This document shows, piece after piece, positions 26,894-47,021 of a DNA stretch of 64,000 bases. Below the pieces are notes generated by a model. That model was not told the DNA's origin. It ran no database searches and saw only the letters and a list, made by a program, of their open reading frames with translations. A program made the translations under genes and the position numbers. The DNA is taken from the NCBI RefSeq assembly GCF_006345805.1, contig NC_043017.1:19902001-19966000 (forward strand), read 5' to 3'. Every line of letters begins with the position of its first letter. Position 1 is the first letter of the stretch. The stretch is from Octopus sinensis (lineage: Eukaryota).

Positions 26894-27192
26894 TATGCAT
26901 ACCTACATATATATATATGTATATATTTATATGCATACATATATATATATGCATATATACATATATATATAATATATATATATATAATATATATATATAT
27001 AATATATATACACATATATACATATATATACATATATATATATACATATATATACATATATATATATATATATTATATATATATATACATATATATATAT
27101 ACATACATATATGCACACACCTATACATATATATACATATATGCATATATATATGCATACATATATACATACATATATATATGTAGATACGT

Positions 27193-27223
<31 letters not shown>

Positions 27224-27230
27224 GATACGT

Positions 27231-27277
<47 letters not shown>

Positions 27278-27768
27278 TGTGGGTGTATATATTACCTACA
27301 CACATATGTACAGATTGCATTCTTAAGCATTCTACTTGAATATACAGAAGAAAGCAACAGGAAAAAAACAAAAACAAATCAAAAGCAAAAACAAATGATT
27401 AAAAAAATATGCATTCTCAAAACAAAAACAAAACAAAAAAAAACCCCCAACTCTCCCACCCCCCTGCTCAGATTCTCTCCCCTCCACCCCTGCATTCTAT
27501 CTTTTACTGAACAAGCTGTGCCGAAAAACAAAGATCACTGTTACATATTGTTGCATCTTATGGTATCAAGAAAAGGTTGGCGTTTCCTCTTTTTTCTTCC
27601 TTTTGAAAAGAAGTGGAGGGGGGGAGGAAAAAGGGGGTTTGGCAAATATTTCCTTGGTTCTTATTCATATTGTTTATATTGTATTATATTATATTATGCT
27701 ATGTTACGTTACGTTATGTGTATAATTGGTAGTTCAGTCATATTACAATATTTGACTTGCCACAAAGA

Positions 27769-27806
<38 letters not shown>

Positions 27807-28093
27807 TAATAATAATAATAATAATAATAATAAGAAGAAGAAGAAGAAGAAGAAGTCACTGCTTTGCTTGCATACTTAGACAATTGCGTAACCTTGGTGG
27901 TTGTGTAATTTTAAAAAAACATCTTGAGCGTTCTCAGTTCATGTAATTGAATTAAATCATAAACTAAGCTGAAACATAAATAAATAAAAAGTATTTTGCA
28001 AAAATGCATGGCAGTGTGATAAGAAGCTTGCTTCCCAGCCACATGGTTCTGGGTTCAATCCCACCGTGTGGCATCTTGGGCAAGTGTCTTCTA

Positions 28094-28337
28094 TTGGGTT
28101 GGTGCATAATTATTACGGCTTTTTATCGATAAATTTTATTCAACAAAAACAATAACATGTAACGAAAACATCTTTAAATGATTATTCTGGAGCATATACA
28201 CCATCTACTTAAATTACTGGTTCCCGTTTGCTTGGCAGACCGTCAGACCATCATTTAAATATGTTTTTGTAAAATATCGTTGTTTTTGTTGAATAAAATT
28301 TGTTGAAAAAATCCGCAATAATTATGTACCAACCTAA
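28094..28337. mobile_element. mariner-type MITE with TA target duplication
   Basis: TIR ttgggttggtgcataattatt / aataattatgtaccaacctaa, TA at 28092-93 and 28338-39, inverted arms of about 90 bp. Internal minus-strand relic LPSKREPVI*VDGVYAPE* resembles a mariner transposase C-terminus. Confidence 0.9.
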
Positions 28338-28531
28338 TACTATAGCCTCATACCAACCAGCCTTGTGAGTGGATTTGGTAAATAGAAACTGAAAGAAGCT
28401 CATCATATATATATATATATAAATTCAGCAAAATTTAAGTTAAGGGCACCAGAATTTTGTATGGTATTATCCCATATAAATCAAATGGGGTGATTATAAT
28501 CAAAATAAGCAACAAGGATATCCAAGGTAGA

Positions 28532-28617
28532 GTAGTACAATTGTTTCATGCTACTTCATTTTATTAAACACTGTAAGTATTACATCAGTTTTAAAATGTC
28601 GAGCAATCTTCAGCCAC
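28532..28617 (-). ncRNA. Type I hammerhead ribozyme motif with enlarged loop II (family H2 element about 28420-28620)
   Basis: GUGG-CUGAAGA-U-UGCU...(about 50 nt)...AGCA-U-GAAAC-AAUU-GUA-CUAC. Stem I GUGG/CUAC, palindromic ACAAUUGU stem III, GUA cleavage triplet. Confidence 0.6.
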
Positions 28618-28969
28618 ATATATATATATACATATATATTTATGTGTGTGTCTTTGTGTCGTGTTTATCCCTCCACCATCGCTTGATAACTTATGTTGGT
28701 GTATTTATGTCCCTGTAACCTAGCAGTCCAGCTAAAGAGTCTGATAGAATAAGTTCTAGGTGGTCGGTTTCTTCGACTAAGAAACCCTCTAAGGTGGTGC
28801 TCCAGCATGGCCGCAGTCAAATGACTGAAACAAGTAAAAGAATAAAAAAAGTATAACAAAAGAAAGCTTGGATGCTGTAGCAGAGAAGCTGCCCTGTTGA
28901 TGTGAATATCTCTTTGAAAATCAAAGAAGAGGAGGATAACCATGGCCTAATGCTTCACGCCCTCCAGAT

Positions 28970-29420
28970 TCTGTAAACCTCCTCGAGGAATGTGAAGACG
29001 CAAGATGGAAAGCAGAACATTTTCCAATCGAAGTCGGATGTAGAGGGTTCGTTGGACACAGTGTAAGATGACTGTTGTTATCGCTAGGCCTAACTCATCG
29101 TAAAGTCAATACCATCCATGACTGATATCCAATCTACAGTGGAGAAGGCTAGCCACTGGATTTGGTTAAAAAGAGACGATGAGCGATGGCTAGAAGGATA
29201 TTGAGTTTAACTTCATAACCAGCTGAACTAGCAAGCAGGGCCTCATATCAGTGAGGTGGGGGGCCGGTGCGCATTGATGCCGTCGAGAGGTAGGCCCTGA
29301 AACGGCGTGCATTCTCTCCTGATGACCCCATACACTTGCTGGCTTCCGGTATACGGAGCTTTTGACTGGTAGCACTTGCATGTGCAAGTTGTTTGCAAGA
29401 CATCTGGATTACAAATTTAC
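28970..29420 (+). mobile_element. 3' end of a HERO/NeSL-like RLE non-LTR retrotransposon with GC-rich structured 3' UTR
   Basis: Translates NLLEECEDARWKAEHFPIEVGCRGFVGHSVR*LLLSLGL...[frameshift]...TVEKASHWIWLKRDDERWLEGY*. PIEVGCRGF and EKASxWIWLKR are typical of this group. Confidence 0.8.
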
Positions 29421-30648
29421 GTTTATACCGATAGTGAAGTGGTGCACTTGGGTTTCGTGAATAAATGCCGAAGTGAGAATAAGGTTTTCAGAAAGAGAAA
29501 CCAATCCCCTAACTAACAAATACTCTAAGTAAAAATATGTAAGGATTTTCTCAAGTTTAAAATGCGACACAAAGACACACATATACAAGTTTCTTTCAGT
29601 TTCCATCTATCAAATCCACTCACGAGGCTTTGGTCTGCTTGAGGTTATAATAAATGACATTTGTCCAAGGTGCTATGCACTGGGACTGAACCTGGAACCA
29701 CATGTTTGGGAAGCAAATTTCTTACCATACATTCACTCCAGTGCCTAGTACCACCCTTCCAACTAACCCCACTAGCAGAAAAGACAAAAAAAGAAGTTAA
29801 GTTTCGACCGCAACTCATTGTGCTTCTAGTAAAGATATCTAAAATTAATAAAATGTAAATGATAGAATAAATGTAAATACAAGTGTTGGTTTATTTGTGG
29901 AGGATGGAGGCGAATATTGAATATTGGTATCAGTTTTAGATAAAGAAGTAAAAGAAAATCTAATCAGACAAAAAGATTAAGAAAAACAAAAGATTTTAGT
30001 TTTTGCGAGACAGACAAATTTATATATTTTTTTCCCCCAATGATTGTAGCATAATATATTGGGCTGAGAGCCAAATATTTGATAAAAAAGTTAAAGAAAC
30101 ATTGTAATGTTGATCTAATCAAAATAACATTACACACGCACACACACACACATTTATATATATATATACATACACACATATGTGAAAAGCAGCCATGCTG
30201 GTGCCACATAAAAAGCACCCAGTACACTCTGTAAAGTGAGTGGCGTTAGGAAAGGCATCCAGCCACAGAAACTGTGCCAAAATGGTTAAATGGAGCCTGG
30301 TACAGCTCTCTGACTTGCCAGCTCCTGTCAAACCATCTAACCCAAGCCAGTATGGAAAGCAATTGTTAAATGATGAAGATAATTTTCCAGAGAGCGAGAG
30401 AGAAGCTGCTGTTATTTTTGACAAGTCCATGGGGAAGGCAGCTCTTTAAAGAGAAAGATACTGTGACATAAAACTTAGTCAAAAACAGTGACCGATCATT
30501 TTGCAATGCTCGTCACTGGAACCTACTATGGCAACTGAGAGAGTGACCAACAGGGTTGTCCAAGTTTTTCTCACTTAAATCCAGTGATATCCAGATGTCC
30601 CACTGCCATTCATTTCTTGATCCATTTTGTATTGTATAAAGTCCTATA

Positions 30649-30680
<32 letters not shown>

Positions 30681-30890
30681 CAAAACGGAAGTTTGAGAAA
30701 ATATGGTATACCAAATTTTTTCAGTCTTTTTGTTTGGAAACATAATTATTCTGCAAACTGAATTCACCAAAAATTTCAATCGTTATGGATAGCACATTCA
30801 AAATAAAACATCTATATACATACAAAGGATTAATGGAAAAATGCAAATCTGCTTCATAAGGACAGAGCTTGGATTATAACTCCCTCTAAA

Positions 30891-30931
<41 letters not shown>

Positions 30932-31010
30932 TTAATCTAAACATGAAAACACAACAACGCGAGGACGTGGAACAAGTATGGTATTATTGTACGCTCAGGA
31001 AAGAAGGAGG

Positions 31011-31045
31011 GTTTAACATTTCGAGTGGAGCCCTTCGTCAGAAAC
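31011..31045 (-). ncRNA. Minimal type I hammerhead motif (family H1 element 30930-31139)
   Basis: GUUU-CUGACGA-A-GGGC-UCC-ACUC-GAAAUGUU-AAAC; one stem II mismatch. Confidence 0.55.
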
Positions 31046-31137
31046 ATAGGAAAAGGAAAGATCCAAAGAAGGGAAGACGGAGGGAAAAAAATCGCCAACG
31101 GTACACATGCGGTCACATTCTGAATGACCGGAAGGGA

Positions 31138-31174
<37 letters not shown>

Positions 31175-31738
31175 AATATATGATGGTCTTCCATACAGTT
31201 TCTGCCTATCAAACCCACTAGAAAAGCATTGGTTGGTGCAGGGCTGTTGTAGAAGACACTTGCCCAAGGTGGGACTGAAACCAAGATCATGTGGTTGCAA
31301 AGCCAGCTTTTTGACCTCGCAACCACGACTGATAAACAGAATAAGGAAGTAGAATTACTGTCTCTATTCTTCCTGGAGCAGCAGTGATCGGCCGATATTA
31401 AAGTATGAAAGACAACAGAAAACACAACTAAGTCTTTAAGCTGCATCGATTTTTTTTTTTAAATTGCTTTTTGGAATCTTTTTTTTGCAGATTTGTAAAA
31501 GTGTGAAAGAAAAGTTGGAATTATGGTAAAAAGAAGAAAAAGAAAAAAATACAGGAAAATACCTCCAAAGAACATAGGATTAATTTCCCGAAAACTATTG
31601 ACAGATATAAATTGATTATGACTTAAGTCCATCTTAGTTGCAATAGCTGCAGGCTGTAAGGTGTCTGTGCTATCATCCTGAGTGCTACTTGTGTTAGGGT
31701 AGTGTAAACATGTGTGTGTATGTATGTATATATATCTA

Positions 31739-31776
<38 letters not shown>

Positions 31777-31985
31777 AAACGGAAGTTTGAGAAAATATGG
31801 TATACCAAATTTTTTCAGTCTTTTTGTTTGGAAACATAATTATTCTGCAAACTGAATTCACCAAAAATTTCAATCGTTATGGATAGCACATTCAAAATAA
31901 AACATCTATATACATACAAAGGATTAATGTAAAAATGCAAATCTGCTTCATAAGGACAGAGCTTGGATTATAACTCCCTCTAAAT

Positions 31986-32024
<39 letters not shown>

Positions 32025-32103
32025 TTAATCTAAACATGAAAACACAACAACGCGAGGACGTGGAACAAGTATGGTATTATTGTACGCTCAGGAAAGAAGG
32101 AGG

Positions 32104-32138
32104 GTTTAACATTTCGAGCGGAGCCCTTCGTCAGAAAC
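32104..32138 (-). ncRNA. Minimal type I hammerhead motif (family H1 element 32023-32230), intact core
   Basis: GUUU-CUGACGA-A-GGGC-UCC-GCUC-GAAAUGUU-AAAC. Confidence 0.65.
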
Positions 32139-32230
32139 ATAGGAAAAGGAAAGATCCAAAGAAGGGAAGACGGAGGGAAAAAAATCGCCAACGGTACACA
32201 TGCGGTCACATTCTGAATGACCGGAAGGGA

Positions 32231-32263
<33 letters not shown>

Positions 32264-33914
32264 AATATATGATGGTCTTCCATACAGTTTCTGCCTATCA
32301 AACCCACTAGAAAAGCATTGGTTGGTGCAGGGCTGTTGTAGAAGACACTTGCCCAAGGTGGGACTGAAACCAAGATCATGTGGTTGCAAAGCCAGCTTTT
32401 TGACCTCGCAACCACGACTGATAAACAGAATAAGGAAGTAGAATTACTGTCTCTAATTCTTCCTGGAGCAGCAGTGATCGGCCGATATTAAAGTATGAAA
32501 GACAACAGAAAACACAACTAAGTCTTTAAGCTGCATCGATTTTTTTTTTTAAATTGCTTTTTGGAATCTTTTTTTTGCAGATTTGTAAAAGTGTGAAAGA
32601 AAAGTTGGAATTATGGTAAAAAGAAGAAAAAGAAAAAAATACAGGAAAATACCTCCAAAGAACATAGGATTAATTTCCCGAAAACTATTGACAGATATAA
32701 ATTGATTATGACTTAAGTCCATCTTAGTTGCAATAGCTGCAGGCTGTAAGGTGTCTGTGCTATCATCCTGAGTGCTACTTGTGTTAGGGTAGTGTAAACA
32801 TGTGTGTGTATGTATGTATATATATCTATATATATATATATCTATATCTATATATATCTATATATAAAATTATAATTTGGGCTATCTAAGAGATACCTCT
32901 ATGCTGGAAATAGCAGCCAAAACTTGACTCTAAAACCACATTAAATGTTCATACAGCACCAGGAGAGAAGACAAAAAGGACAAAATAAACTAGTTTTGTC
33001 CTGTTATCTGCTTCTTGTACAGGTATCTTGACCATTAGGATACTTGTATTTTACTTCATCTAACCCAGTATCTGACTGGTATTCATTTTACTTGCTACAC
33101 CTGCACCAATGGGGTGAAAAGGGAAGTGGACATCATCAAGAATTGATCACAGGACACAAATGATGATCTTCTGATGTAAGAACTCAAATTTCGCTTGAAA
33201 TATCACCAAGAAGTTCTCTACAAGCAATGTAAATTCTTCTATATTCTGGTAAAGGACATAAAAATAAAATCAACCAAGTGTCATACCAGCTTAAAAGCCA
33301 TTCTATGAATGAACCCTAGAGAGAAATACTAATGTGTTAAGTAGGCGTAGGATGAAGTAAAAGGGCCCACATTTATAATGAACACATCAATCAAACTGCG
33401 TTGGCATTTCGCATGACAGAGAAAAGAATAAGACCATTCTTTGACGAAATAAATAGAATGACATGGAAGGTGGTTTAATCAGAAATGTATTATATACATG
33501 TCACTTATTTCACCATAAATCCATTGCTGATTAAGGCAAGAAGCAGGGTAATTAATTAACCAAACTCACTCGTTATCTTTAATGACCAATCATTGTCAAA
33601 CTATGGCTTGTTGCGGCAAGGTTGGATGAGCTATCTATTAAGGTCTGGGCAATTACTGACATGGACATATAATTCGTTTGAATTAACACAGAAATTTCAC
33701 CATCTAGATGACTCTGGCTGAAGAGAGGTGATTGGTGGAGGTCAATAGAATGCTACTTCGACATAAGCCTAGGCTTCATCAACCAAGATTGTCTTCACCT
33801 GGATGTGGGTGTATGTTGTATGACCTAAAACACACAATAACCCCAGGATTGAATGCTGATGATGGGTCTCATCATTTGTAATGGTATTGCATTTGTAAAT
33901 GTATGTCCTTTTAT

Positions 33915-43900: not shown

Positions 43901-44130
43901 TCAGTGTTGACCATGGTTCTGCATTGTCGTGGGCAACCCTGGTCAAGGATGTCTGGTAGAAGACCAGTAGTAGCCTGTCTTCTCTGATCCTCATTGCTTA
44001 ATGTCCATTTTCCATGCTGGTATGGGTTAGATGGCTTGACAGGAGTTAGCAAGCTGGAGGACTGTGTCAAGATCCATTGTTTTGGCACAGTTTTTTTTTT
44101 TTTTTGCTTGTTGCCCTTTTTAACATCAAT

Positions 44131-44530
44131 CACTTTACTGAGTGGACTGGCTGCTTTTTATGGGGAACTAGCACTGGTGAGGCATATTTTGGCAAGGTTT
44201 TTATAGCTGAATACCCTTCTTAACACCAACTACTTTACAGGGTAGACTGAGTGACTGTTAAGTGGCACCAGCCCCATTGAGGTCTGCTTTAGCATGGTTT
44301 TTATGGCTGGATGCTCTTCCAAATGCCAACCACTTTACAGAGTGGACTGGGTGTTCTTTATGGGGAACTGGTACCAGTGAGGTCTGCTTTGGCATGGTTT
44401 TACAGATGGATGTCCTTCCAAATGCCAACCCCTTTACAGAGTGGACTGGGTGTTCTTTATGGGGAACTGGTACCAATGAGGTCTGCTTTGGCATGGATGT
44501 CCTTCCAAATGCCAACCTCTTTACAGAGTA
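44131..44530 (-). repeat. About 100-bp tandem units derived from SINE family C
   Basis: cactttacagagtggactgg-like blocks at 44131, 44231, 44331 and 44430. Confidence 0.8.
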
Positions 44531-46541: not shown

Positions 46542-46586
46542 CTTCCTTCTTCCCTTCCTTCCTGAGCGTCCAATAATACTATATTT

Positions 46587-47021
46587 GGCTCTCCGTGCCA
46601 GTGGAACATAAAAAGCACCATCCGAACATGGCCAATACCAGTGCTGCCTTAATGGCTCCCCGTGCCAGTGGCACATAAAAAGCACCATCCGAACATGGCC
46701 AATACCAGTGCCGCCTGACTGGCTCCCCGTGCCAGTGACACATAAAAAGCACCATCCGAACAAGGCCAATACCAGTGCTGCCTGACTGGCTCCCCGTGCC
46801 AGTGGCACATAAAAAGCACCAGCCGAACATGGTCAATACCAGTGCTGCCTTACTGGCTCCCTGTGCCAGTGGCACATAAAAAGCACTATCCGAACATGGC
46901 CAATACCAGTGCCACTTGACTGGCTCCCCGTGCCAGTGGCACATAAAAAGCACCATCCGAACATGACCAATACCAGTTCCGCCTTACTGGCTCCCCGTTC
47001 TGGTGGCACGTAAAAAGCACC
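46587..47021 (+). repeat. 67-bp minisatellite, 6.5 copies, forming the 5' part of a SINE C copy (to about 47155)
   Basis: Units start at 46587, 46654, 46721 ... 46989; each has palindromic gtgccagtggcac followed by ataaaaagcacc. Confidence 0.95.

Follow-up and report, generated by a model that had tools for sequence, protein, structure and literature searches.

What does a hammerhead core do in the 3′ UTR of a LINE when its strands do not stand in the order of types I, II or III, and which end of the RNA, if any, does it make? The question is raised by a retroelement copy in a 64,000-nucleotide stretch of Octopus sinensis DNA (contig NC_043017.1, positions 19,902,001 to 19,966,000; here called the window and numbered from its first letter). 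A sequence-only reading of the window had noticed all parts of a hammerhead core behind the ORF of a HERO-like element, in the order GUC strand, GAAA strand, CUGAUGA strand, and had proposed a permuted or dimer-forming ribozyme that could define the 3′ end of the element RNA. Comparison with other copies and with related elements points to a different role. We consider it probable, at roughly 0.6, that the tail of this HERO-like LINE carries a split-core hammerhead of type-SGC order that cuts after C29284, that the ends of the cut RNA are rejoined and that the RNA is copied round.

The element and its family

The window copy (Table 1) is the last 435 bp of a unit of ~3.74 kb, and the ORF frames are longer in L031 and L033. 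Longer copies encode a reverse transcriptase (RT; RVT_1) with CCHC and KPD motifs in a single ORF that ends in a C-terminal restriction-like endonuclease. Among the 2451 first-look candidates in this genome, the best 40 have identities of 95-100%, and the 26-nt core has 819 exact matches. The solved proteins closest to homolog P0001 are R2 proteins; in a visual comparison each RT block finds its counterpart in HERO-1_BF and HEROTn, R4-5_BX being much less close. Membership in the HERO clade is likely on these protein comparisons. Flanks differ among copies, which indicates no fixed target site, as in the HERO clade, whose elements likewise have a single ORF with CCHC and PD motifs (excerpts of PMC4640811, PMC7650587). 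Target duplications of at least 8 nt occur in 5/70 copies and are too rare to prove that over-length copies are single insertions. Two other interspersed repeats lie beside the copy (window 28620-28850 and 29567-29700), each resembling many unrelated loci at 70-85%; the window also holds a near-duplicated segment of ~1.05 kb with identical frames (30880-32870) and tandem arrays of 100 bp (44127-44496) and 67 bp (46586-47021).

Table 1. Window coordinates of the element copy and of the parts of its predicted ribozyme
Feature	Position	Strand	Remarks
Worn, 5′-truncated copy of a HERO-like RLE LINE	28969..29403	+	94.9% to the longer copy L031
Broken ORF end (endonuclease region) with frameshifts and a stop; TGA 29202-04	28969..29204	+	
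P0 closing helix, 5′ strand	29228..29240	+	Distal 29228-35 pairs with 29335-42; proximal 29237-40 pairs with CCCC 29326-29
Hairpin CCUCA/UGAGG between P0 and stem II	29241..29256	+	With P0, sits between A9 and G10.1
Stem II strand GGGGCC with G10.1 (G29260), displaced 5′ of the motif	29260..29265	+	4/5 pairs compensatory
Stem I-II interaction helix, 5′ strand GGUGCGC	29266..29272	+	Partner 29307-13
Block S: stem III strand, GUC triplet, stem I strand	29278..29289	+	Predicted cut between C29284 and G29285
Block G: stem II strand, GAAA 29299-302, stem III strand, interaction strand	29293..29313	+	Stem III 96% paired
Stem I strand CUCUC, core CUGAUGA 29319-25, P0 3′ strands	29314..29342	+	Stem I pairs rank 1st and 2nd of 6903
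Tail to the common 3′ end of copies (GACA-T-C-T-A, no poly-A)	29343..29403	+	Copy ends

A hammerhead fold with a split core

The motif letters reported earlier are in place: AUGCCGU-C at 29277-84, GAGAGG at 29285-90, GAAACGGCGU at 29299-308, UCUCUC at 29313-18 and CUGAUGA at 29319-25. The 8-bp helix 29228-35/29335-42 is located as described, stems I and III pair as proposed, and the order of the strands is indeed none of hammerhead types I, II and III, being S, G, C with crossing helices. From 5′ to 3′ the full order is P0, hairpin, stem II, interaction, block S, block G, interaction, stem I with CUGAUGA, and P0; four helices (P0, II, the interaction helix and III) span the predicted cut.

Relatives were collected by using 28 aligned homologous proteins to scan metagenome contigs, which gave 80 loci; because whole proteins were used, 33 of them are without the ORF end, and the 47 that include it provided 49 UTRs. 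Viral contigs contributed one distant RT. GAAA with CUGANGA (or the U3/A8 variant of it) downstream is present in 38/49 of these UTRs and missing in 11, of which four are shortened by contig ends and seven are not. Elements with an incomplete UTR core (L119, L121, L122, L143, L162, L169, L173) may have lost it, may have decayed or may belong to other lineages. A strict six-helix descriptor parses 25/49 UTRs, 0/1800 shuffles and 0/50 reverse complements, together with 2/705 upstream windows that were not individually inspected; by these counts the predicted six-helix fold stands far above chance.

Since a descriptor parse is fitted, a second alignment was built by sequence alone. Its 35 rows are the 38 UTRs minus five near-identical ones plus two rows from the octopus genome itself, all picked for the presence of both motifs, and pairs were ranked on 34 of them. 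Aligning related 3′ UTRs and looking for covariation was the check that the sequence-only reading had suggested, and it bears out the core of that proposal: when the 6903 column pairs are ranked by covariation, each of the leading 11 is a predicted pair (stems I, III and II, the interaction helix and P0). Across the 28 named pairs, 85% of cells are paired, compared with 59% in shuffled and 35-43% in slid alignments; 25/28 pairs show compensatory changes, and the covariation score of 0.63 drops to 0.20 on shuffling and to 0.145 or less on sliding, these controls not being tree-aware. The individual helices behave alike. P0 has changes on both sides in 5/5 column pairs with 72.6% of cells paired, and the interaction helix is compensatory in 6/6 pairs and 88% paired, with three of its pairs among the top 11; in the hairpin, 3/4 column pairs change on both sides and 73% are paired, its occurrence in 25/25 parsed relatives being by construction. 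The register is set by L104 (63% protein identity to the query), which has compensatory changes in P0 (GGAGA/UCUCC), stem II (GGGCUC/GAGCCC), the interaction helix and stem III.

In rows chosen for both motifs, the letters of the catalytic core follow hammerhead rules. GAAA, U4, G5, A6 and A9 occur in 34/34 rows. C3/G8 occurs in 32/34 and is exchanged as a pair for U3/A8 in the other two (L147, L155), which form one lineage; in hammerheads a double swap of this core pair restores activity. N17 is C in 13 rows, U in 14, A in 7 and G in none, so that the NUH rule holds in 34/34; U16.1-A15.1 is U-A in 35/35 rows, and 10.1-11.1 is G-C in 30/35 and G-U in two. Covarying stems I, II and III around these core letters are expected of a hammerhead, here recognized from aligned sequences, and we regard the fold as real with near certainty. 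Two generic searches, both with pseudoknots beyond their scope, give no sign of it: Rfam, searched over 24000-32000, had no hammerhead hit with E <= 10, and single-sequence folding of the motif gave no support (z 0.21).

Several features that had seemed to speak against a monomeric hammerhead arise because the window copy has decayed. It is a fossil, changed at 29237, 29257-59, 29298 and 29308, and its ribozyme is likely weakened. The proximal P0 strand 29237-40 is GGGG in most copies and AGGG in the window (G at 29237 in 52/63 copies), its partner CCCC standing directly after A9, and the stem II strand of block G is GGCCCC in most copies and GGCCCU in the window. The UGGG at 29257-60 that had been read as the stem II partner of CCCC is a minority state found in only 6/90 copies; L104 and the alignment place that partner at 29237-40. 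The alternative register, in which a single upstream strand stands in for both halves of stem II, is ruled out by L104 and the copy counts. The supposed C-U mismatch at 10.1-11.1 dissolves in the same way: 10.1 is G29260, 11.1 is C in 58/68 scorable copies, and U29298 is a CpG-type change that gives G-U. What looked like a 4-nt linker too short for a monomer is a strand of the covarying helix GGUGCGC 29266-72/29307-13. No dimer needs to be invoked, as every strand finds a partner inside one copy; the permuted hammerhead-like RNA itself, conserved and covarying in HERO-like 3′ UTRs, stands.

The strand order had been thought undescribed, and it is that of type SGC. HRIMA-1 and its variants have block order S, G, C and were shown to cleave (Eckert et al. 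2023, PMC10085705, in excerpt). They share with this RNA the core letters, a stem I strand tied to a stem II strand by ~3 nt, and an interaction helix in which the strand linking stems III and I pairs with the one that comes after stem II. The two differ in block C. In type SGC, CUGAUGA is followed directly by its stem II strand (0-1 nt), whereas here the stem II and interaction strands lie 5′ of block S, and P0 and the hairpin come between A9 and G10.1. Letters after A9 pair in P0 and letters before GAAA pair with the upstream strand, both with covariation, which departs from an unbroken block C. According to PMC10085705, known alignments allow only 1-2 extra nucleotides between A9 and G10.1, an unbroken CUGANGA block is the stated assumption behind the six proposed permutations, and type SGC was seen in metatranscriptomes alone, no genome of a known organism yielding an example. 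The search pattern of Eckert et al. demands the unbroken block and would miss a split-core form. No description of the split-core wiring was found in the limited literature searched.

Probable footprints of cutting, and head-to-tail copies

If the predicted ribozyme cuts, some genomic copies could start at the base after the cut. The 17-nt core occurs in 660 copies. A strict filter, which asks for mismatches at the three letters preceding G29285, retains 8 of them, and 7 prove to be true 5′ ends on exactly that base; the same filter set 4 nt upstream yields one match that is not a 5′ end, and 4 nt downstream none. Seven ends compare with 0.22 expected from the local rate in 90 unbiased copies (P = 4e-9) and with 3.3 expected from the highest regional truncation rate (P = 0.05). 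The 90 are those analysed among the first 100 of the 819 core matches; the 10 left out include the cut-site copies L205 and L207, and L272, among the 90, begins one base upstream of the site. A looser pattern gives 39 matches, all viewed, with 9 true 5′ ends at 29285; the other 30 are decayed continuous copies or carry an internal deletion. The same base, L044:1472, is preceded by unrelated flanks in 12 contigs of run X15, although this run could derive from the sample that gave the window. Most copies cross the predicted site, and the first 30 unbiased copies display no pile-up there; it is visible only in whole-genome counts. The simplest reading of copies beginning at 29285, indirect as this evidence is, is that RT ran off the 5′ end of cut RNA; we consider it likely that the ribozyme cuts in cells. 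Two cut-site copies have particular joints: in L211:1395-1623 the copy starting at the cut is joined directly to an ORF piece (body 1547-1655) in a template-jump-like manner, and L210:1486-1627 has a 12-bp target duplication and five extra bases at its 5′ joint.

The site marks 5′ ends and does not define the 3′ end as had been suggested: copies end ~118 nt downstream of the cut, without poly-A. After GACA the 3′ ends fade into the letters of the 5′ UTR (T in 38/43, C in 21/38, T in 13/21, A in 10/13), and in over-length copies the tail continues into the 5′ UTR. The tail sequence GACA-T-C-T-A would be the start point of reverse transcription.

The tail lies directly upstream of the 5′ UTR in 22/40 matches to the ORF start. 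These 22 collapse to nine insertions with nine different breakpoints, 180-990 nt into the tail and all past the cut, and a tenth insertion stops within ~6 nt of the tail-to-5′-UTR junction; 9/10 independent insertions that reach the 5′ end run on into their own tail. Twelve loci (L179-L182, L184-L186, L188-L190, L198 and L203, on contig C18 and unplaced contigs) share one breakpoint and the same deletions, which identify them as one insertion multiplied by segmental duplication. The two tails of a copy agree to varying degrees. Those of L187 differ at 3/512 positions and share three changes, flanking the cut on both sides, that are in no other aligned tail, and the upstream tail of L175 is nearest to its own downstream tail. 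The tails of L195 disagree at 16/172 positions, including two subfamily markers, and in L177, L178, L196 and L202 the own downstream tail is not ranked first. Among relatives with at least 700 nt downstream, the UTR runs into an ORF start in 8/13. Head-to-tail copies and the passage from UTR to ORF in relatives therefore indicate a template that is unbroken at the priming point as well as at the cut. Three contigs from runs guessed to be RNA also cross the tail-to-5′-UTR junction, by ~30 letters, and are not counted as evidence.

A second concentration of 5′ ends lies at 29020-29060 (body 2840-2880), where 21 of the 90 copies (L034-L063, L257-L316), or 21/43 of those at risk, stop within 41 nt, with a sharp fall beyond; this hot zone could be a transcript start or a stall. 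A smaller cluster of five ends at window 28965-28970 includes the start of the window copy. In L317:2099-3217, L318 and L319 an internal deletion has brought the ORF start next to the tail, with the joint at body 2853-2875; the unit of L317 measures 984 nt, is itself over-length and resembles a non-autonomous mini-element. In L118:85-7266 two elements 68% alike stand head to tail with one ribozyme each, either a mixed tandem or an assembly chimera. The 5′ UTRs of L097, L109, L110, L111, L115, L118 and L167 and L080:1020-1110 contain repeated GGAAAGAC words at ~20-nt spacing and, near the ORF start, a CCGAGAGGGG word, conserved among distant relatives; both words are possible protein-binding or promoter elements.

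A proposed cycle, its alternatives and its meaning

These observations can be arranged in a cycle. An over-length copy (tail, 5′ UTR, ORF, tail) would be transcribed, and both ribozymes would cut to release a unit RNA of ~3.74 kb with G29285 as its first base and GUC as its 3′ end. Because four helices span the cut, this RNA would hold its own 5′ and 3′ ends together, and the paired ends could be sealed by the reverse reaction of the ribozyme or by a host ligase. The element protein would nick genomic DNA and prime at GACAUC, ~118 nt from the cut. On sealed RNA the RT would pass the site, as most copies do, and a full round would write the tail twice; on cut, unsealed RNA it would run off at 29285, in about 3 copies in 100. 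Sealing and copying round are proposed by analogy. We incline slightly towards a sealed circle as the main template.

The cycle recalls known systems in part. In retrozymes, hammerheads cut to unit length, the unit is circularized, and more-than-unit cDNA has been proposed to arise when RT goes round the circle (PMC7761336); retrozymes are short and non-coding with type I or III hammerheads, whereas this element is a 3.7-kb protein-coding LINE. Ribozymes of other classes (HDV-like in R2 and others, twister variants in Perere-3) make the 5′ end of LINE RNAs and leave footprints at the cut, and they sit at the 5′ end of a linear element (excerpts of PMC7761336, PMC13580325, PMC8501958); the ribozyme described here lies after the ORF; most of it is required to either side of the cut, and the head-to-tail repeat is its sole route to the 5′ side. 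Penelope-like elements share partial tandem copies, a terminal repeat with a hammerhead and an internal RT start downstream of the ribozyme. They have a minimal type I hammerhead, a GIY-YIG endonuclease and a telomerase-like RT, in contrast to the R2-like RT and restriction-like endonuclease of this LINE, which has neither GIY-YIG nor a telomerase-like RT. For a Penelope-like element, uncut RNA was the main substrate in vitro and the cut position yielded neither reads nor copies, whereas copies of this LINE start there (excerpts of PMC11167929, PMC7761336). In the limited literature covered, no description of a ribozyme, a head-to-tail form or a circular template was found for HERO.

A linear, Penelope-like cycle, to which the hot zone lends support, is the main alternative, and we think it unlikely, although deserving of weight. 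The working template would be an uncut partial-tandem transcript starting in the upstream tail near 29020-29060, with the ribozyme cutting a minority of RNAs or setting up translation; priming at the upstream GACAUC would give the many copies of 350-380 nt and priming downstream the over-length ones. The peak of 5′ ends at 29020-29060 and the sharp fall beyond it (21/43 at risk) fit such a start, as do the three deletion derivatives that rejoin the tail at the hot-zone position, the differing tails of L195 and the Penelope precedent. Yet 4/9 upstream tails extend well past the hot zone (body 2731, 2718, 2587, 2236), the private changes in both tails of L187 require one template or gene conversion, and four covarying helices clamping the cut are left unexplained.

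Two further readings concern the cut itself. R2-type enzymes are capable of end-to-end template jumping, and the unit RNA might be cut and never sealed, forming a non-covalent ring through its helices in which RT jumps the nick. The same genomic layout would be expected, and L211, in which the cut site is joined to an ORF piece, looks like a jump. We hold this to be quite improbable: template jumps often add bases at the junction, whereas the GUC-GAG junction is clean in nearly all crossing rows viewed, with small changes in L026, L048 and L229. It is very improbable, in our judgement, that the fold is a non-cutting, protein-binding or pausing structure at which the enzyme stalls to leave starts at 29285. 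Such a stall would accord with the many copies that pass the site and with a split core known from sequence alone, but the catalytic letters, the NUH rule (34/34), G10.1-C11.1 and the joint swap of C3-G8 to U-A are all retained, and the 5′ ends sit on the one base that analogy predicts and not at the foot of the first-met helix. Counting against the cutting hammerhead that we prefer are the modest excess of starts over the highest regional truncation rate (P = 0.05), the related UTRs that lack the core, and the split between A9 and G10.1, for which the literature searched offers no tested precedent.

The strand order is already known as type SGC; the split core and the LINE setting appear to be new, no description of them having been found in the literature searched. 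If true, hammerhead permutations would no longer be confined to the six in which the CUGANGA block is taken to be unbroken, and the SGC-type order would move from unassigned metatranscriptome RNAs to animal genomes, where it would number hundreds to thousands of copies. Circular RNA production could also profit from a ribozyme that holds both ends of an RNA. The role of hammerheads in autonomous retroelements has been called unknown (PMC7761336, in excerpt), and a probable footprint of the cut in the genome bears on it. We put at even odds the broader proposition that autonomous LINEs of a widespread clade replicate by way of a covalently closed RNA of 3.7 kb; a hammerhead with wiring beyond the six proposed permutations would make it, its split core clamping the two ends for ligation, and target-primed reverse transcription (TPRT) would start inside the circle and roll past its start. 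If this is true, it would be a LINE with a Penelope- or retrozyme-like cycle, contrary to the rule of 3′-end priming on linear RNA.
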